Made by a program: the position numbers and the translations under genes
Notes under the pieces: model-generated
The model's input: only the letters and a program-made list of their open reading frames with translations
What the model was told of the DNA's origin: nothing
Database searches by the model: none
NCBI GenBank assembly: GCA_030706745.1
Contig: JAUZNX010000009.1
Coordinates: forward strand, 58,740 to 122,739
Direction of reading: 5' to 3'
Source: Bacteroidota bacterium
GTDB lineage: Bacteria > Bacteroidota > Ignavibacteria > Palsa-1295
DNA: 64,000 nucleotides
In this document: piece after piece, positions 3,304 through 44,845 of the stretch
Layout: the number at the start of each line of letters is the position of its first letter
Position numbering within the stretch: the stretch's first letter is position 1

Positions 3304-4383
3304 ATGAAGTTGAAACTCGCAATCTTACTTCTCCTTTCCTTCGCCTCTTCGCTCGCAGTCGCTCAGCACAATCCTGCTTCGCAGGAATTCCGCCTGCACT
3401 TTAAGGAAGGGGATCTTTGGCGCGTGCAAACGACTGAGGTCCTCCGGCTCATGATGCACTTTCCTCAGGTCGATCCGATGGATGCCAAGCCAAGCATTCG
3501 CACGACGGTATACTCCTTTACCTACGCGATCGAAAAGACTCTTCCCGATGGTTCGGCCGTCATTGGCGCAACGCTCGACTCGTTCAAGACGCGGATTATG
3601 TTTGGCGAAGGGAAGCATGCGGAGGACTTCTTTCATTTCAACTCCGCAGTCGATTGGGACCTCGAACATACCCTTCGAGACATCAAGACACTGCCACGCG
3701 CCCAATTCCTCGGTCAAACACTTCGCTTTACGATGCGGCCCGATGGCACCGTTCACGATTTTCAGAACCTCGCCGACTTTCATCAAAATGCCATCGGCAA
3801 AGGCTATGACTACGACATGGTCCATGCGGTATTGTCTTTATCGGATTCATTGCGGATGGGGCAACTGCTGGAGTTCGGTTTCGGCGGGCTGGCCGCCACC
3901 GGTGCAGAGTACCGATCGCCTTCCACGGCGACAGAAATCCCAATGGTTCGAAAAGTCTCGTTCTCATCGGCTGGCAAACGTGCCGCGAATGTGAGCGTCG
4001 TCTACTCGGATCCACAGGAGCATATTGATTATCTTGAGGGCATCGCGACGCCCATGGGTATTCTGAAATTTCAGGGTGGCGGGCAAGGCAACATTCTGAT
4101 GCACGAGAATTTCTTGAAGCATGGTTCCTACCGAGACACTGCGAACGTTGTTCTCGCAATCGATATCGATACGGTGCCGGAAGAGATCACGAGGCTCGTT
4201 ACGACGGACGTCACGCCGATTCCGGTACTTCGCGCAGGCAAGCAAGGAGGGCGGATCACGGTACAAGAAATCGAGTCCCACGAGGCACCGGTACCGAAAC
4301 ACGAGCGTTCCTCACCCGAGAATTCAAAAACCATCCCTGTGGATACCCTCGGCACTCGAGCGCCTTCCACTATTAAACCATAG
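3304..4383 (+). CDS. Secreted hypothetical protein (DUF6263-like)
   Basis: ATG at 3304 gives signal peptide MKLKLAILLLLSFASSLAVA; beta-rich body similar in layout to the next gene. Confidence 0.65.
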   Translation: MKLKLAILLLLSFASSLAVAQHNPASQEFRLHFKEGDLWRVQTTEVLRLMMHFPQVDPMDAKPSIRTTVYSFTYAIEKTLPDGSAVIGATLDSFKTRIMFGEGKHAEDFFHFNSAVDWDLEHTLRDIKTLPRAQFLGQTLRFTMRPDGTVHDFQNLADFHQNAIGKGYDYDMVHAVLSLSDSLRMGQLLEFGFGGLAATGAEYRSPSTATEIPMVRKVSFSSAGKRAANVSVVYSDPQEHIDYLEGIATPMGILKFQGGGQGNILMHENFLKHGSYRDTANVVLAIDIDTVPEEITRLVTTDVTPIPVLRAGKQGGRITVQEIESHEAPVPKHERSSPENSKTIPVDTLGTRAPSTIKP

Positions 4384-4393
4384 CAATACTCCT

Positions 4394-5461
4394 TTGAACT
4401 TCAGGACCACCCTTCTTTTCGCCGGACTCACAATTCTTGTTGCATGCGGTAAAAAGGATACCGCTCCTACAACCACGACGACGACCACAATCGACACGAC
4501 TGTAAAGGCCGAGCCTGTTGTCATTGCGGACACGAATCATCATCTCTATTTTCGGCCGGTAGCCGGGAGCGTCCGGCGCTATCACGTCATCGACCGCATG
4601 ACTGCCGAAGCAACCGATGCACAGCCGGGCGGCCAGACAGACAAGCATGCCGGGACCAGTCAGAATGAATTCTATGTGACGGCCACGACGGGAACTACGG
4701 GAAGCGATAGCAGCGTCGAACTTACCGTTCGAGTTGATTCGATCAGTCTGTCGGCCGATCAGGACACAACGCACACGCGATACTCGAGCAATAACGCGAA
4801 GGACCGCGCCAACGAGCGCTACAGGCAATTTAATATTATGATCGGCAAGACGATCAAGGTACGCGTCGACAAATATGGCGATCTTGCGGCCATGACCGAT
4901 GTCAGTGCGATCTCGGGTGCCCTCATGAGTCAGGTCCCGGATTCCCTCCGATCGAATCCGCGCATCCAACAAATGGCAACGCAACAGGCCCAGGAAATTG
5001 CCAATTCATATCTGATGCGTGTTCTGGTCCATAGCCCGACGCGAGCGTTAATCAAAGACACAACGTGGCGCCATAGCTCCGACGTTAATCTCAATATTGC
5101 TCAGGGACTGAGCTTCCCGGTTACGGTTGCGGCCTCAGAGACTGTCCGCGGGCTCGAGCGACGTAATGGACGTGTCCTTGCAGTGCTGGAAGACAATACG
5201 ACAACAACCCCAAAGAAACTCGTCCTGCAGGAAGGCCCCACCAAAGCAACGATCAGTAATTTCGTTGCGACCTCGCATGGTGTCGCCCGCGTCGACGATG
5301 CAACGGGCGTGCTGTTCCATCGCGCACTCGATGAGAAGCGGAGTTTCACGTTTGTTGTGGAGAATACCCAGCACCCGGGCGAGCGTCGTTCCATCTCTCA
5401 GAATGGATCGGAGACTCTGACCGTAGAGTTGATCGCAGAGACACCAGTCGCCAAACCATAG
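4394..5461 (+). CDS. Hypothetical lipoprotein (DUF6263-like)
   Basis: In-frame TTG at 4394, just after the upstream stop, gives MNFRTTLLFAGLTILVAC (lipobox) and a Thr-rich linker. Confidence 0.7.
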   Translation: MNFRTTLLFAGLTILVACGKKDTAPTTTTTTTIDTTVKAEPVVIADTNHHLYFRPVAGSVRRYHVIDRMTAEATDAQPGGQTDKHAGTSQNEFYVTATTGTTGSDSSVELTVRVDSISLSADQDTTHTRYSSNNAKDRANERYRQFNIMIGKTIKVRVDKYGDLAAMTDVSAISGALMSQVPDSLRSNPRIQQMATQQAQEIANSYLMRVLVHSPTRALIKDTTWRHSSDVNLNIAQGLSFPVTVAASETVRGLERRNGRVLAVLEDNTTTTPKKLVLQEGPTKATISNFVATSHGVARVDDATGVLFHRALDEKRSFTFVVENTQHPGERRSISQNGSETLTVELIAETPVAKP

Positions 5462-39501: not shown

Positions 39502-40782
39502 TTATGAAAGCGTGGACTTTGCCGTATCCAAAAACGCGGCAACATCGGCTTCCGATGTGTAAATGTGGACGCTGAACCGGCTGGCTTCCAGGCCTCCCTC
39601 CGGCACGATACGGGTGCGGACTTTGCGCTTCGCCCACATCTTTTCGTAGAAATCCTTATAGTCCATGTTCTCCAGCTTGATCGTCGTAATACCGGTCATC
39701 GAACTCGGCGGGGTTAAGAAATGGAAATGTCCCGGCGCCAAATCCTTCAAGCCATTGCGAAGCATGGTCGTCAGATGGATCACACGTTGCTCGATCTTAT
39801 CAAATCCAATCTTCTCCTGAAACTCGATCGCACAGTGCAATCCATCGAAGAGCGCAAAGTTTTGCGTTGCGAAATCGTAGCGCGAAGCGGTTGGCAGGAA
39901 CTCCAAACGGGCATCATAACCCCAATACTTATCCGCTTCTCCGCCACTCCATGTCGGAATCACATGCTCCCGGAAGTCGGAGGCGATGTATAGGAATCCG
40001 ATTCCTTTGGGTCCGCAGAGCCATTTGTGACCGCATGAGGCATACGCATGGACTCCTAAGTCCTGCACGTCCGTCTGAAGCATTCCCGGCGGATGAGCGC
40101 CATCGGCGATCATCCAGATGCCATGCTCGCGAGCAAGTTGCGAAATGCGCTTGATCGGCAGCAAATGGCCAGTCGTGCAGGTCAGGTGCGGCATTGAAAT
40201 GGCGCGCGTGCGCGGCGTGATCGCGTCTTTGATCCGCTGCAAGAATTCATCGTCGCTGTATGGCTCCCACTTTTCGTTCGTGAGTGGGATGAATTTGATG
40301 ACAATGCCGTCGCGATTCTTCCGTGCAAGCCAGGGAATCGCATTGCCGGCATGTTCCTGATTCGTCAGCAGAACTTCATCGCCGGCCTTTAAGTCAATAC
40401 CACTTGACACAATGGAGACTGCTTCGCTGACGTTATGCGTGAAGGCAATATCATCACCGCTCTTTGCATTGATGACCCGGGCGATAGCTTTGCGAATTCC
40501 TTCGTAATCCCCACCGTAGTCACCCGTGGCATCGACATGCTCGATGCGTTTCGTTACTCGGTCGGTGACCACGAGCGGGCTGGGGCCCATCGTGCCATTG
40601 TTGAAATAGAGGACTTCGCGCGAAATGGGAAACTCATCGCGAATAAGCGACCAGTACTGCTCATCTTCGGCAATTGGGATCTGTTTCAAGCGTCCGTTGG
40701 TGACGGCCAGTGAAATATCACGGAAAGCAACGTTCAGCGCAGCAGACGTTGCAGTCATTTTCAAGAATGTTCTTCGGTCCAT
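39502..40782 (-). CDS. Class V PLP-dependent enzyme (cysteine desulfurase/isopenicillin N epimerase-like) with Tat signal
   Basis: MDRRTFLK twin-arginine motif; YFNNGTMG, DGAH, SCGHKWLCGPKG. Confidence 0.9.
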   Translation of the reverse strand: MDRRTFLKMTATSAALNVAFRDISLAVTNGRLKQIPIAEDEQYWSLIRDEFPISREVLYFNNGTMGPSPLVVTDRVTKRIEHVDATGDYGGDYEGIRKAIARVINAKSGDDIAFTHNVSEAVSIVSSGIDLKAGDEVLLTNQEHAGNAIPWLARKNRDGIVIKFIPLTNEKWEPYSDDEFLQRIKDAITPRTRAISMPHLTCTTGHLLPIKRISQLAREHGIWMIADGAHPPGMLQTDVQDLGVHAYASCGHKWLCGPKGIGFLYIASDFREHVIPTWSGGEADKYWGYDARLEFLPTASRYDFATQNFALFDGLHCAIEFQEKIGFDKIEQRVIHLTTMLRNGLKDLAPGHFHFLTPPSSMTGITTIKLENMDYKDFYEKMWAKRKVRTRIVPEGGLEASRFSVHIYTSEADVAAFLDTAKSTLS

Positions 40783-40917
40783 GGTAGCACGTGGCGGTGA
40801 ACGATCGCTCACTCATGAGGCTACTAAATGCGATTCAGGGACAAAACATTCTGAACCTCGATGGACTAAACGACGAAAGGACTCTGGTGACAGAGTCCTT
40901 TCGATTCAGGTATTCCT

Positions 40918-41172
40918 TCAATGCGTCGTTCGCTGCTTCTTCGTCCGAAGCAAGAACCACCCAACTCCTCCGAGTACCACGATGGCCGGACCGATCAACT
41001 CGAGGCCAGGAGTGAATTGCTTTTCCCAGGTCTGCGTCACGGTACCGAAGAGTTCATCTTTCACTTCGATCATGTGCTGAGTCGTGGTCCACATCTGATG
41101 TCCACTTGCCATCCACCAAATCAGAAGTCCAGCGGCGGCGATGAACAGAACGAACGCGATATTCTTTTTCAC
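40918..41172 (-). CDS. Small two-TM membrane protein
   Basis: 84 aa with two hydrophobic segments; start abuts the YceI stop. Confidence 0.7.
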   Translation of the reverse strand: MKKNIAFVLFIAAAGLLIWWMASGHQMWTTTQHMIEVKDELFGTVTQTWEKQFTPGLELIGPAIVVLGGVGWFLLRTKKQRTTH

Positions 41173-41859
41173 TTATGTCGTGCTTTTTTTCTCCGCATTG
41201 CCGAAAAGCTGCGCGGAAATCTTGATGGTTTCGCCGACCTTGCTGCCAATATTGCCTTCAGTCCCGGCGATGTTAAAGTCTTTGAGCGAAATCGTAAAGT
41301 CTGCGGTAATCATGACGAGATCGCCTGGAGCCCGCTGCCGCGTCTTGTCGCTTTCTGGCACGTAGGTCATCTTGAATGGAATTGTCACTGTCTTGGTCAC
41401 ACCATGCAGCGAGAATGTCCCGATTGCATTACCGGTAGCAATATTGCCACTGGTCTTGACGTCTTTCATGCTCGTAATAGTAAAGCCAATCGCCGGGAAG
41501 CGCCGCGCGTCAATCCATTCGGCACTTTGCAGGTGGTTGTCGCGGGTCGCATTGCCGGTCTTCATGGTCGCAGATTTTGTCTGGACCGAACCACGCAATG
41601 TGGAAAGATCCCGGGGATCGAGGGTGAGCGTTCCACTCACACCTTCGCTGGAGCCCTTAATGCTCTCGAGCGGGGCGTCGCTGATCCAGATAAACTGGTT
41701 ATGGCCGACTTTATCGTTGAACGTAACCGTCTCGGAGCCATTGCTCGCAACTGCAAGCCCTTGTGCGAACGTGCTTCCAGCCAGCAGCAATATCGCGATC
41801 GTAAACGCGAGAACGAAATGTGTTTTGACCATTGTGTATCCCATAAGTTTGGTTGTCAT
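41173..41859 (-). CDS. YceI-family periplasmic lipid/quinone-binding protein
   Basis: Signal peptide; TGNATRDNHLQSAEW, FPAIGF, GTFSLHGVTK, DFNI; GGAGGAG SD upstream. Confidence 0.92.
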   Translation of the reverse strand: MTTKLMGYTMVKTHFVLAFTIAILLLAGSTFAQGLAVASNGSETVTFNDKVGHNQFIWISDAPLESIKGSSEGVSGTLTLDPRDLSTLRGSVQTKSATMKTGNATRDNHLQSAEWIDARRFPAIGFTITSMKDVKTSGNIATGNAIGTFSLHGVTKTVTIPFKMTYVPESDKTRQRAPGDLVMITADFTISLKDFNIAGTEGNIGSKVGETIKISAQLFGNAEKKSTT

Positions 41860-42002
41860 ATTGTCTCCTCCTAAAGACGCCAGAAGTACCCTCGAAGTTA
41901 CAACGGCTGGGTGAATCTTTGTTTAGACATTAAATCTTCACGTACTAATAACTCCATGCTGCGGCTAATATCACGAAAGAACAGGCCATTATGAACATCA
42001 TC

Positions 42003-42977
42003 TCATTGACACTCCATCGCCCCCTGATCGATCCATTGTCCAATCATCAGAACCTGATTTGGTGTCAGCGCCGGCGCCGGCGGTGGTGGCATTCTCGAAT
42101 TCATATTGAAGTCCACGATCCGTTGATATAACCGACTTGCTCGGGCATTGCCGGGCTTAACATCACTGAGAGTCCGTCGATAATCCAGAAGAGGGCGCGA
42201 TGATCCATCATGGCAACCACTTCCGGTGCAACTCTGCATGATCGGCTGAATGTCACGCGAGAAACAGCGTAGCGAATCCGTGCTTTTCAATAACGTGATC
42301 GTCGCAAGCGAGGTATCGGTAGCGGATGCAGCCTGAATGAGGGTGATCGAGCTATCGCGCTCAATGGATGCTGGTGCGGTGTAGAGCCCCGAATTCGTGA
42401 TCGTCCCGGGTCCGCTGACAATGCTCCAAGTCAGTGCCGGGATGGACCCACTCTGAATCGTGTCGATCTCGAACTGCTGCATTCGGTTCGTCAGCATCGT
42501 CACGGCGATCGGCGAAATCGTAAACGGGGCATCCGGTGACGTCGTCATGACGATGGTGCACTCGGCGTACCGGGTCGGATCTTCGACAGAACTTGCTCGA
42601 ACCACGATAATCGTATCGGCGAGCGAAATGAAGTTCGCGGCATGGTATTGAGCGGATAATCCAGTGCCGACAACAGAATCTCCGCCCGGACTTTTGATGA
42701 TGGTCCACGTAATCGCGGCCGAGTGCGACACGCCGCGGATGTCCGCCGTTAAATCGAGTATGCCGTTGATCGGCACGGTCGCACGACTCGGAGACATCGT
42801 GACCGTTAGTAGGCTCACGTCAGGATTGCCCGAAATGGTGTACATACATCCACCGCCCATCGCCATCACGAGGAAGACAAGCAACAAATGACGAATGAAG
42901 AAGGACGAATGACGAATGGTATCATCATTCCTCCTATTCGCAATTCGTAATTTGTAATTCGTAATGTTCTTTGACAT
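42003..42977 (-). CDS. Lipoprotein with two Ig-like domains and a C-terminal c-type cytochrome domain (planctomycete-cytochrome-like)
   Basis: Lipobox-like GGGC; Ig-like repeats (TWxIV..PG..G.YxAP); FSRDIQPI..CTGSGCH...RMPP...IGQWIDQGA. Confidence 0.8.
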   Translation of the reverse strand: MSKNITNYKLRIANRRNDDTIRHSSFFIRHLLLVFLVMAMGGGCMYTISGNPDVSLLTVTMSPSRATVPINGILDLTADIRGVSHSAAITWTIIKSPGGDSVVGTGLSAQYHAANFISLADTIIVVRASSVEDPTRYAECTIVMTTSPDAPFTISPIAVTMLTNRMQQFEIDTIQSGSIPALTWSIVSGPGTITNSGLYTAPASIERDSSITLIQAASATDTSLATITLLKSTDSLRCFSRDIQPIMQSCTGSGCHDGSSRPLLDYRRTLSDVKPGNARASRLYQRIVDFNMNSRMPPPPAPALTPNQVLMIGQWIDQGAMECQ

Positions 42978-42985
42978 GAGAAATA

Positions 42986-44200
42986 TTAGTAGAATAAGTG
43001 GATCTGGCCGGTCCATTGTCCCGTGAACGTGCCGGTGCCCGTGAGCGGATTCTTTTGTGTCACGCGATACTCCGGGCGGAGTTCGATATAGGGAGCCGGG
43101 AAAAACTCGAATCCGAACAGGAACGCCTGCGAGAATCCGAGATCGACGCCGGGATAATGCTCCGTCTGACCATAGTCATATCGCCACTCGATATCGAGCC
43201 ATGACATTAACTCCAGATTCCCGAGTACGGAGAAGTTTCTTGTAATCCGTTCATCCGCGTTTTTCGAATACATGCCTTCCACGTAAATCGTAGCTTTATC
43301 GGCAAGGCCGACTCCTGTAAAGACATTGTACATCTTGAAGGAACCGTTGGCCAGGATCGATGCGCCGACCTCACCATTGAGGCCCTGATCGAGCAATTGC
43401 GGCCAGAGCATCACGCGGCCGGAGATACTGGGACGCGAAAAATCAAAGTTCGATTTGACGACGCCGATCGTCGGATCGACTTGCGCCAAATTGTACGAAT
43501 TGAAAATCCCTGCGTTGACGGTGAGCCAACGAATGCCTTCGTATGTCAACTCGGCTCCCATTTCATTGTAATACGGAGGGATAAGCACGGTCCCCTGAAT
43601 CGCAGCTTCCTCATGCACGAACTCGGTGTGGTCATCCTGCCGGATACTGATCGAAGGTTCGATCATACCAACCCGGATCGAGGGCAGCGAAATCGACGGC
43701 TGGTATTGAATGGCAGCGTCGTAATCGGTCTCGCCAGGATATAACCCCGCCGATGTTCCGAAGACCCCTTTCGTACTCGTCAGACTGCGGACATAAAGGC
43801 TTGCGAAATTGATATTCGTGTATGCCGAGAGTTCCGGAGTTGCGATGTATCCAAGCGAGCCGGTAAGCTGCATGGGAATCAGCAATTCCTGATGGGTCTT
43901 GGACTCACGCACGAGTTGAAATCTCATGTCGGCACCAGGAATGAACTTGCCGCCAAAGATCGTATTCGTTGCCGGGATGCCGGACGTATCTGGCCCGTGC
44001 CATTTTACGAGTCCGGTTTCGTTCATCATTTCCCATCCGAGTTGGGTACGGAGTCCGCTTCCCTGCGGATTGAAATGGCAGACGGAGCACCGCGTGCCGG
44101 TCAGCAGCGAAAACCGCGGGATCGCTTCGGATGAACATGGCACAAGCACTAATGCGGTTAGTGATAGTTGGCAGATGATGCCGAATCTGATGCGCGGCAT
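42986..44200 (-). CDS. Outer-membrane beta-barrel with N-terminal CxxCH haem motif
   Basis: Signal peptide then IPRFSLLTGTRCSVCHFNP; alternating beta strands; aromatic C-terminus QIHLFY; start could be 44254. Confidence 0.75.
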   Translation of the reverse strand: MPRIRFGIICQLSLTALVLVPCSSEAIPRFSLLTGTRCSVCHFNPQGSGLRTQLGWEMMNETGLVKWHGPDTSGIPATNTIFGGKFIPGADMRFQLVRESKTHQELLIPMQLTGSLGYIATPELSAYTNINFASLYVRSLTSTKGVFGTSAGLYPGETDYDAAIQYQPSISLPSIRVGMIEPSISIRQDDHTEFVHEEAAIQGTVLIPPYYNEMGAELTYEGIRWLTVNAGIFNSYNLAQVDPTIGVVKSNFDFSRPSISGRVMLWPQLLDQGLNGEVGASILANGSFKMYNVFTGVGLADKATIYVEGMYSKNADERITRNFSVLGNLELMSWLDIEWRYDYGQTEHYPGVDLGFSQAFLFGFEFFPAPYIELRPEYRVTQKNPLTGTGTFTGQWTGQIHLFY

Positions 44201-44270
44201 TTGGTGCACCACCTGGTTTAATGAGGTGATCGTTCGGTGAAAGATGTGGGTCATTTGAGGTTCAAAATGG

Positions 44271-44744
44271 TTAGACCAGCTTCACTTGGAGCACCTTCGC
44301 TGCCGCGTCGTATGTCGTATCGTATGCGACGAGCGGCGATGGCGCGGGGCCGGAAACCACGGACCCTTCGAGGGTGAAGTACGAATTATGGCAAGAGCAG
44401 TGGATGTCGGTTCCGGCCAGTTGAGAATCAACCGGACAGCTCGCGTGCGTGCATCGTTGCGAGAAGGCATGCCAAGTGGTGCCGTTGGTCAAGGTGATGA
44501 GGACCCCCATCCCATCCGGCCCTGTAATTCCGGAAGCCACTTTGTAGGGATGCGACGGAGTGATATCCGATACGTCAACGGCAACCTTGCCATCTGGTCC
44601 AACCGGATTTGAAGCCGCAATCGGGATAATCGGCGCAGACGTGGGAAGACATGCCTCAATAACAGGCAGAACCGCCAGGCCCATCGCCACGCCCCCCGTT
44701 AGTTTGCCTGCTCCGGCAAGAAAACCTCTTCGAGTTAATTTCAT
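44271..44744 (-). CDS. Tat-exported Rieske [2Fe-2S] protein
   Basis: MKLTRRGFL; CTHASC and CSCHNSYF boxes; possible lipobox IEAC. Confidence 0.92.
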   Translation of the reverse strand: MKLTRRGFLAGAGKLTGGVAMGLAVLPVIEACLPTSAPIIPIAASNPVGPDGKVAVDVSDITPSHPYKVASGITGPDGMGVLITLTNGTTWHAFSQRCTHASCPVDSQLAGTDIHCSCHNSYFTLEGSVVSGPAPSPLVAYDTTYDAAAKVLQVKLV

Positions 44745-44845
44745 TTGCTTATAGACACCAAATTCTATGTTGCGTCACGCCAACATGATTAACGTTAGAC
44801 AAAATTCATGCGGGGATTGAATAAGCCCGCAATTCACCCCGATTC

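Follow-up and report, generated by a model that had tools for sequence, protein, structure and literature searches.

A Rieske lipoprotein gene accompanies a Cyc2-like cytochrome-porin gene in a candidate outer-membrane electron-transfer cluster of a Bacteroidota bacterium

Cyc2, the main genomic marker for mapping microbial iron oxidation, is a fused cytochrome-porin whose partner in canonical systems is a soluble cytochrome c (Cyc1-type). The family is defined by a single CXXCH motif, with AXPXFAR[Q/K][T/Y] upstream of it and PXL following at a distance of four residues, and by a porin of 16 strands with an OprO/P-like structure (PMC8406198). Many Cyc2 homologues have been found in bacteria not known as iron oxidisers (PMC8406198; PMC6344600), and canonical homologues are known from Ignavibacteriaceae and Bacteroidetes bins (PMC6344600; PMC8478452). 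Here, we describe a cluster of five genes on the minus strand at positions 40918-44744 of a 64,000-nucleotide stretch of DNA from an uncultured Bacteroidota bacterium of Kapabacteria type in the class Ignavibacteria (hereafter the window; assembly GCA_030706745.1, contig JAUZNX010000009.1, positions 58,740 to 122,739), in which a Cyc2-like haem-porin (hereafter the barrel) is encoded beside a Rieske iron-sulfur lipoprotein. From sequence comparisons we propose, with a probability of roughly 0.7, that this cluster is a trans-outer-membrane electron-transfer module in which the iron-sulfur lipoprotein would replace the c-type cytochrome as the partner of the porin.

The open reading frame (ORF) listing of the window contains five ORFs running in the same direction, all coding for exported or membrane proteins, as the original prediction had described them down to their coordinates. 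In the order of the cluster, and with the evidence used for each assignment, these are (Tat, twin-arginine translocation; Ig, immunoglobulin; AF2, AlphaFold2):

44271..44744, minus strand: Rieske lipoprotein, predicted Tat-exported [2Fe-2S] protein, 157 aa (Pfam PF00355, TAT signal model)
42986..44254, minus strand: Cyc2-like fused monohaem cytochrome-porin, 422 aa as the longest ORF (homologues, AF2, hhalign)
42003..43016, minus strand: Ig/cytochrome lipoprotein with two Big_2-type Ig-like domains and a C-terminal PSCyt1-like domain (conservation, AF2)
41173..41859, minus strand: YceI-like periplasmic protein of the lipocalin-type, polyisoprenoid/lipid-binding family, with a signal peptide (PF04264)
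40918..41172, minus strand: small inner-membrane hairpin protein, 84 aa, two transmembrane helices (homologues beside barrel or YceI)

The intergenic gaps, in the same order, amount to 16 or 70 nt (depending on the start of the barrel gene), 8 nt, 143 nt and 0 nt, which again bears out what had been predicted, including the contact between the two last genes, where the GTG start of the small-protein gene directly abuts the stop codon of the YceI gene. The barrel likely starts at 44200, yielding a protein of 404 aa that matches the public copy P0001 beginning at M19, and the start of the Ig/cytochrome lipoprotein is probably located at 42974. The cofactor motifs named for this locus (the two Rieske boxes, CSVCH in the barrel, and CTGSGCH with a distal Met in the Ig/cytochrome lipoprotein) are all present and, as detailed below, conserved across homologues far more than chance would allow.

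Two described arrangements could account for parts of this gene content, and both were rejected. The Rieske subunits of bc1/b6f complexes and of arsenite oxidase resemble the window protein in their Tat export and in their CTHxxC and CxCH[GN]S boxes including the disulfide cysteines, and b6f/bc Rieske domains are also its best sequence matches; in contrast to these subunits, the window Rieske protein is small (157 aa), has a conserved lipobox and adjoins neither a cytochrome b nor a molybdopterin subunit. Neither the cluster nor any of the related loci examined contains a cytochrome b gene, and the cytochrome b genes of the genome lie elsewhere, so that a bc complex, already set aside in the original prediction, was dismissed. 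In the MtrCAB, PioAB and MtoAB systems, similar to the arrangement proposed here, electrons cross the outer membrane via a haem-holding beta-barrel and a redox lipoprotein is encoded next door. These systems, however, combine separate decahaem proteins in a 26-strand barrel, whereas the window encodes a single covalent haem motif in a predicted 16-strand barrel, its lipoprotein is predicted to hold an iron-sulfur cluster, and the decahaem genes of the genome are located elsewhere. Since the single haem is fused to the 16-strand barrel and no multihaem gene is present within the cluster (the barrel polypeptide itself has a single haem motif), an MtrAB-type reading was rejected as well. The earlier statement that the cluster differs from multihaem porin-cytochrome systems is correct, though Cyc2, its nearest known relative, had gone unrecognised.

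The barrel starts with a signal peptide, continues with a ~60-aa cytochrome module (AIPRFSLLTGTRCSVCHFNPQGSGLRT) and ends in ~340 residues of amphipathic strands. Its mature N-terminus, AIPRFSLLTGTRCSVCH, follows the Cyc2 layout AxPxF...T-x3-CxxCH, with CSVCH located 12 residues past the predicted signal-peptide cleavage site. The overall plan of a signal peptide, a short monohaem module and a 16-strand OprO/P-like porin of ~400 aa is that of Acidithiobacillus ferrooxidans Cyc2, Mariprofundus Cyc2PV-1 and Ghiorsea Cyc2TAG1, with which the barrel also shares the mature AxPxF, a Thr three residues before CxxCH and a later G-[WY]-x-M stretch. Among the properties by which Cyc2 proteins are recognized, the window barrel has the signal peptide with a single N-terminal CXXCH, the 16-strand barrel and a length of 404-422 aa, compared with at least 365 aa.

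A Cyc2 reference set was obtained by back-translating the defining motif and scanning the genome collection with it, which yielded > 100 loci. The scan returned the genes of Sideroxydans, Gallionella, Mariprofundus, Ghiorsea, Ferriphaselus and Chlorobium sp. N1, together with a FARKY group from bins of Bacteroidales and Nitrospira. In the fetched Cyc2 genes, T/Y stands three residues ahead of the first Cys, which is the spacing found in AIPRFSLLTGTRC of the window barrel. Comparison of the window family with the FARQT Cyc2 group by hhalign over the whole protein gave 95.8% with an expectation value (E) of 8e-9 over 338 columns, and the mature cytochrome module without the signal peptide gave 95.7%, E 9e-9 and 33% identity, the alignment leaving a gap of six residues opposite the PXL segment of Cyc2 (FPxLN). 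Controls in which either alignment was reversed remained below 1%. Ad hoc profiles built from the motif-fetched Cyc2 genes were also run against all ORFs of the genome, where they matched the window barrel and its paralogue with 18-20 bits, at the N-terminus only, and otherwise solely three canonical Cyc2 proteins with 87-112 bits. We conclude from these comparisons that the barrel shares its cytochrome module with Cyc2 by descent and would work like Cyc2, and that it belongs to a separate family.

The separate standing of this family is apparent from its own sequence record. The barrel has no match in Pfam or NCBIfam, and a sequence search against the PDB yielded only marginal matches to OmpA. 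In a search of 5.8 billion proteins we recovered 117 homologues, all of them hypothetical proteins of Kapabacteria/Bacteroidota metagenome bins, and an exhaustive profile search returned 1519 cluster representatives at E <= 0.001, of which 151 remained at E <= 1e-30. CxxCH is kept in every family member with an intact N-terminus. An alignment of 27 sequences shows as invariant A26, P28, G35, C38, C41, H42, G47 and R51 in the cytochrome module region and, further on, M110-Q111, D189-D190-H191-T192 and E373/R375-P376-E377-Y378-R379; the motifs NPQGxGxR, IPMQ, DDHT and ELRPEYR are invariant features that distinguish the family from Cyc2. [quoted passage not shown] Foldseek related this model to general porins, the top TM-score of 0.56 being that of the phosphate porin OprO (4rjx/4rjw). 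DDHT lies within a long segment (181-212) between strands 5 and 6, the position taken by the constriction loop L3 in classical porins. Judging from the secondary-structure string of the model, we infer that DDHT lines the barrel lumen, and we propose that it may serve as a substrate (metal cation) site or as a haem-ligand donor.

The strongest indication of how the barrel may be connected comes from its gene neighbourhood. We compared 78 related loci, with 53 distinct barrels in the closer clade, and counted a Rieske gene as partner if it was encoded on the same strand within 3.5 kb of the barrel. A Rieske gene stood beside the barrel in 51 of the 53 distinct closer-clade relatives, one of the two exceptions being located at a contig edge, and most barrel-Rieske pairs were within ~20 nt of each other or overlapped by 4 bp, translational coupling of the two genes being frequent. 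Among the 24 relatives with > 3 kb of flank on both sides, the Rieske gene was found in 23, YceI and the small protein in 10 each and the Ig/cytochrome lipoprotein in 6. Rieske and barrel are thus the invariant core, whereas YceI, the small protein and the lipoprotein, the last of these restricted to certain lineages, recur without being indispensable. Accordingly, the expectation that the genes would be conserved together held for the Rieske-barrel core and failed for the five genes as an equally linked set. By comparison, the 120 canonical Cyc2 loci (857 kb) contained one Rieske gene and no YceI, small-protein or lipoprotein gene. The window family thus departs from Cyc2 in its neighbouring redox partner, a Rieske lipoprotein in place of a c-type cytochrome.

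The order of the genes varies among the related loci. The order Rieske-barrel-(lipoprotein)-YceI-small is found in the window and in L002, barrel-small-YceI-Rieske in L166, L167, L168 and L175 and, reversed, in L161 and L163, barrel-small-Rieske in L162 and L164, and Rieske-Rieske-barrel in L003, L169, L171, L174 and L178. Because the same gene set recurs in shuffled orders, the linkage is better explained as functional than as accidental.

The neighbours of the barrel differ towards the edges of the family. The most distant barrel examined, with 27% identity (L003, GCA_964408855.1, 7037-9789), has two Rieske genes upstream, one of them without a lipobox, and downstream a gene for a DUF2231 membrane protein, possibly an alternative partner in the inner membrane. 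In a more distant clade of 21 barrels no Rieske gene was present, and some of these barrels adjoin small mono- or dihaem cytochromes. Upstream of the barrel in this clade stands either a ~222-aa monohaem protein or a ~134-aa dihaem cytochrome (L181, L182, L187, L198 and L185, L188, L192, L200); the N-terminus of the former resembles the cytochrome module of the barrel, and a ~160-aa membrane protein is often found nearby. The only canonical Cyc2 locus with a Rieske gene (L043, from a Planctomycetota bin) has it at 4140-4673, roughly 0.6 kb downstream of Cyc2.

The Rieske protein of the window matches PF00355 with E 2.6e-11, carries the boxes CTHASC and CSCHNS, and finds its nearest solved structures among b6f/bc-type Rieske domains (E 5e-9). 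Its N-terminus comprises a twin-arginine signal (TRRGFL) and a lipobox (VIEAC), followed by a Pro/Thr-rich linker. Because a conserved lipobox closes the signal peptide, we predict a lipoprotein, with no uncleaved signal helix as its anchor. The ligands C-x-H...C-x-x-H are retained in all of the 60-odd Rieske genes neighbouring barrels, and in almost all of these partner proteins a twin-arginine motif occurs together with a lipobox Cys that ends the signal peptide, for which reason they are predicted to be Tat-exported lipoproteins. The disulfide cysteines are either both present, as in the window, or both absent. In more distant lineages (L161, L162, L164, L168, L170, L172, L173, L176, L178, L003), the lipobox Cys is continued by CEKDE, CETDE, CEQDE or CEEET, an acidic motif which we take to resemble the surface-lipoprotein export signal of Bacteroidota; in the window clade, it is followed by the Pro/Thr linker (CLPTSAP) with no acidic motif. 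A third Rieske lipoprotein of the same subfamily is encoded at C30:130888-131358, ~8 kb past the end of the window (E 2.5e-39 against the neighbourhood profile), and has no adjoining barrel.

Taken together, these observations suggest the following model. As proposed for Cyc2, the barrel haem would sit in or under the lumen, where it would swap electrons with the cluster of the lipid-anchored Rieske protein at the periplasmic face of the outer membrane. Inward flow appears most probable, because a disulfide-bearing bc-type Rieske cluster should accept electrons readily but pass them poorly to Fe(III); dissolved Fe(II), or some other small reductant of this kind, would then be oxidised at the porin haem. 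The electrons would next be taken up by the Rieske cluster, whose potential is probably fairly high given its bc/b6f-like character and disulfide cysteines, and would be handed on to c-type cytochromes, including the Ig/cytochrome lipoprotein, and to haem-copper oxidases. In the weakest step of the model, YceI together with the small protein might anchor the module to the inner membrane or provide a link to lipid or quinone, the quinone link being drawn solely from the general reputation of YceI proteins. Substrate and direction of flow are inferences, as is what YceI and the small protein would do.

Several findings weigh against this model. The barrel lacks both FAR[Q/K][T/Y] and PXL: the window sequence reads IPRFSLLT, with P-x-F and the final T retained and A-R-[Q/K] replaced by S-L-L (hence FSLLT in place of the Cyc2 motif), and after the haem motif it continues as CHFNPQGSG, the PXL segment being deleted. 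Homology to Cyc2 is carried by a cytochrome module of ~45 residues, and a barrel-only hhalign comparison of the window family with Cyc2 gave 1.6-15%, which is not significant; homology is therefore claimed for the cytochrome module and the shared architecture only. The same barrel-only comparison between the FARQT and FARKY groups of Cyc2 gave 0.4% and was not significant either, so that the tie between the window family and Cyc2 is of the same nature as the tie uniting the Cyc2 groups, only more distant. Two further points concern distribution and layout. The barrel profile was found in 215 of 301 genomes of the class (71%) and in 101 of 135 genera, a wider spread of the barrel superfamily than expected of a dedicated iron-oxidation trait. 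Moreover, the 143-nt gap between the lipoprotein and YceI genes means that YceI and the small gene could form a separate transcription unit in this window.

Of the other explanations considered, the one that survives best, though we still regard it as unlikely, keeps the same architecture and reverses the flow. Quinol would feed the Rieske protein, which would reduce the porin haem and thereby Fe(III), Mn(IV), humics or O2 outside the cell, and YceI would act as a quinol/isoprenoid carrier that is loaded at the inner membrane via the two-helix protein. YceI-family proteins bind polyisoprenoids, and in several of the gene orders described above YceI and the small gene stand between barrel and Rieske. 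A Rieske protein is also the quinol-oxidising centre of bc complexes, and the window Rieske is most similar to the b6f/bc types; in addition, Ignavibacteriaceae relatives have been reported to reduce Fe(III) (PMC6344600). Against outward flow, a disulfide-bearing bc-type Rieske usually has too high a potential for the reduction of Fe(III) oxides, and no semiquinone-handling partner such as a cytochrome b is present. Furthermore, over half of the family members lack YceI and the small protein, which means that the general mechanism cannot rest on a link to quinol.

A more far-reaching version of the proposed module, which we put forward only as a speculation with little chance of being right in full, would make the haem-porin and an obligate Fe-S lipoprotein partner a new type of outer-membrane redox wire. 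In the lineages with CEKDE, CETDE or CEQDE, the Rieske protein might be displayed at the cell surface, where it would provide a [2Fe-2S] redox site outside the cell comparable to MtrC. Where YceI and the two-helix protein are present, the wire might reach the quinone pool through an isoprenoid quinone held by the lipocalin, with no cytochrome b involved.

It is improbable, in our estimate, that the cluster encodes a redox enzyme or protective device unrelated to respiration, which would act on a small pore solute (Cu(I), Mn(II), sulfur species, peroxide or superoxide) or would condition iron for uptake. Such a role would suit the presence of the barrel superfamily in 71% of the class genomes and the occurrence of Cyc2 homologues in bacteria not known to oxidise iron, mentioned at the outset, and the invariant DDHT and ELRPEYR motifs would suit any cation. 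The neighbourhood, however, contains no co-conserved transporter, peroxidase or metal-resistance gene, and the cytochrome lipoprotein together with the electron-transfer genes of the genome fits a respiratory context.

Just as poorly placed is the view that only Rieske and barrel form a unit and that YceI and the small gene, perhaps also the lipoprotein, are unrelated downstream envelope genes, for which the 143-nt gap before YceI, the strong ribosome-binding site of its own (GGAGGAG, preceding the ATG) and the fact that 14 of the 24 long-flank relatives lack YceI and the small protein can be cited, but which sits badly with the placement of both genes between barrel and Rieske at six or more loci of other families (at least L161, L163, L166, L167, L168 and L175), unlike chance neighbours, and with the confinement of the small protein's homologue in the genome to this cluster.

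If the trans-outer-membrane module that we favour is active, a widespread and mostly uncultured set of Bacteroidota relatives would gain an unrecognised electron exchange with their surroundings, and a haem-to-iron-sulfur relay would join the known routes across the outer membrane. Given the very tight gene linkage, the partner of a monohaem porin would be identified here, and the onward transfer of electrons from such a porin, unsettled for Cyc2 itself, would become directly testable. Current Cyc2 screens would miss the window family because they require FAR[Q/K][T/Y]. In a full-text literature search, we found no link between Kapabacteria and Cyc2 beyond a mention in taxonomy, no paper combining Rieske, YceI and an outer-membrane cytochrome, and no description of a Rieske partner of a cytochrome-porin. 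The designation of the locus as an uncharacterised envelope electron-transfer gene set is supported.

The accessory proteins were characterized in the same manner. In the Ig/cytochrome lipoprotein, the lipobox reads GGGC, and CTGSGCH, a CX4CH motif near the C-terminus, is accompanied by a distal Met within RMPPPP; across 14 homologues, the lipobox Cys does not vary, nor do C250, C255, H256 and M296. The window protein matched nothing in Pfam or NCBIfam, and a sequence search of the PDB gave noise only, with no cytochrome. It falls below the threshold of PF07635, and its motif is CX4CH, not CXXCH; some homologues carry precomputed matches to PF07635 (four proteins) or PF02368. The AF2 model, made up of a helical domain and two beta-sandwiches, is structurally matched by tandem Ig folds. 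In the lipoprotein copies found in barrel neighbourhoods, CxxSGCH is conserved, and larger versions contain a second domain with CLGCH.

The YceI protein matches PF04264 with E 1.8e-25 and 90.5 bits (cut-off 23.7). The small protein has no significant Pfam family; its homologues are 85-146 aa long and are encoded beside a barrel or YceI. Its periplasmic loop contains a conserved D-[PE]-[LI]-F-G-T, and since no His or Cys is conserved, it is not predicted to be a cofactor carrier. The pairing recalls E. coli yceI-yceJ, which encodes a periplasmic YceI together with a membrane cytochrome b561 homologue; at both loci, which have a redox context, the gene of a periplasmic YceI-family protein adjoins that of a small inner-membrane protein. 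In contrast to YceJ, the membrane partner in the window consists of two helices without a conserved His and thus cannot bind haem b.

The rest of the genome offers a setting in which the proposed module could operate. Cytochrome c maturation genes, whose presence the original prediction had suggested checking, were found (three PF01578 matches), as were two haem-copper oxidases, two Rieske/cytochrome b pairs on contigs C12 and C27, a pentahaem cytochrome beside a 1027-aa protein and two decahaem cytochromes beside proteins of 781 and 831 aa. On account of its maturation, oxidase, Rieske/cytochrome b and multihaem genes, the organism is well equipped for periplasmic and extracellular electron transfer. 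A 771-aa haem-copper oxidase is encoded at C12:239264. On the same contig, the region C12:204000-227000 looks like an extracellular-electron-transfer island: besides the two decahaem cytochromes adjoining the 781- and 831-aa proteins, it contains several monohaem cytochromes, a canonical Cyc2 gene and a Rieske/cytochrome b pair.

The genome encodes six haem-porins, namely three canonical Cyc2 proteins, two Rieske-linked barrels and a third, more distant barrel on contig C23. The canonical Cyc2-like genes are located at C12:224283-225554 (L203), C6:68517-69866 (L204) and C12:202877-204256 (L205); one of the proteins begins with AIPLFAHKYNTTCFTCH, and two of the three genes are followed by a dihaem cytochrome gene. 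The second Rieske-linked barrel belongs to a module on contig C26 (C26:215610-218540, L207) with the order Rieske-lipoprotein-barrel, in which the paralogous lipoprotein has two cytochrome domains (CTMSGCH and CLGCH). Of the 215 class genomes with a barrel match, approximately 65 carry the closer, Rieske-linked clade by a rough count (E below ~1e-84). Canonical Cyc2 is patchier, with 29 positive genomes among 151. When 301 genomes of the phylum were sampled, each of the 31 barrel matches at E <= 1e-20 belonged to this class.

Further genes adjoin the cluster in the window. A class V pyridoxal-phosphate (PLP) enzyme of the SufS/PvdN-like type with a Tat signal is encoded directly downstream (39502-40812, minus strand). 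It was rejected as a core part, being found at 0 of the 78 related loci, and nothing indicates the handling of sulfur that had been suggested as one option for the locus. LysE, a GT9-like protein and an extracytoplasmic function (ECF) sigma pair, conserved within the genus only, were likewise rejected as core parts. Scans for sigma-70 promoters and intrinsic terminators gave chance-level results only. Between the stop codon of LysE and the start codon of the Rieske gene, we observed a hairpin, GCGGG-N11-CCCGC followed by ATGAATTTTG (44810-44830, minus strand), which the terminator scan did not flag because its loop exceeds 8 nt, and which perhaps serves as a terminator between LysE and the redox genes.

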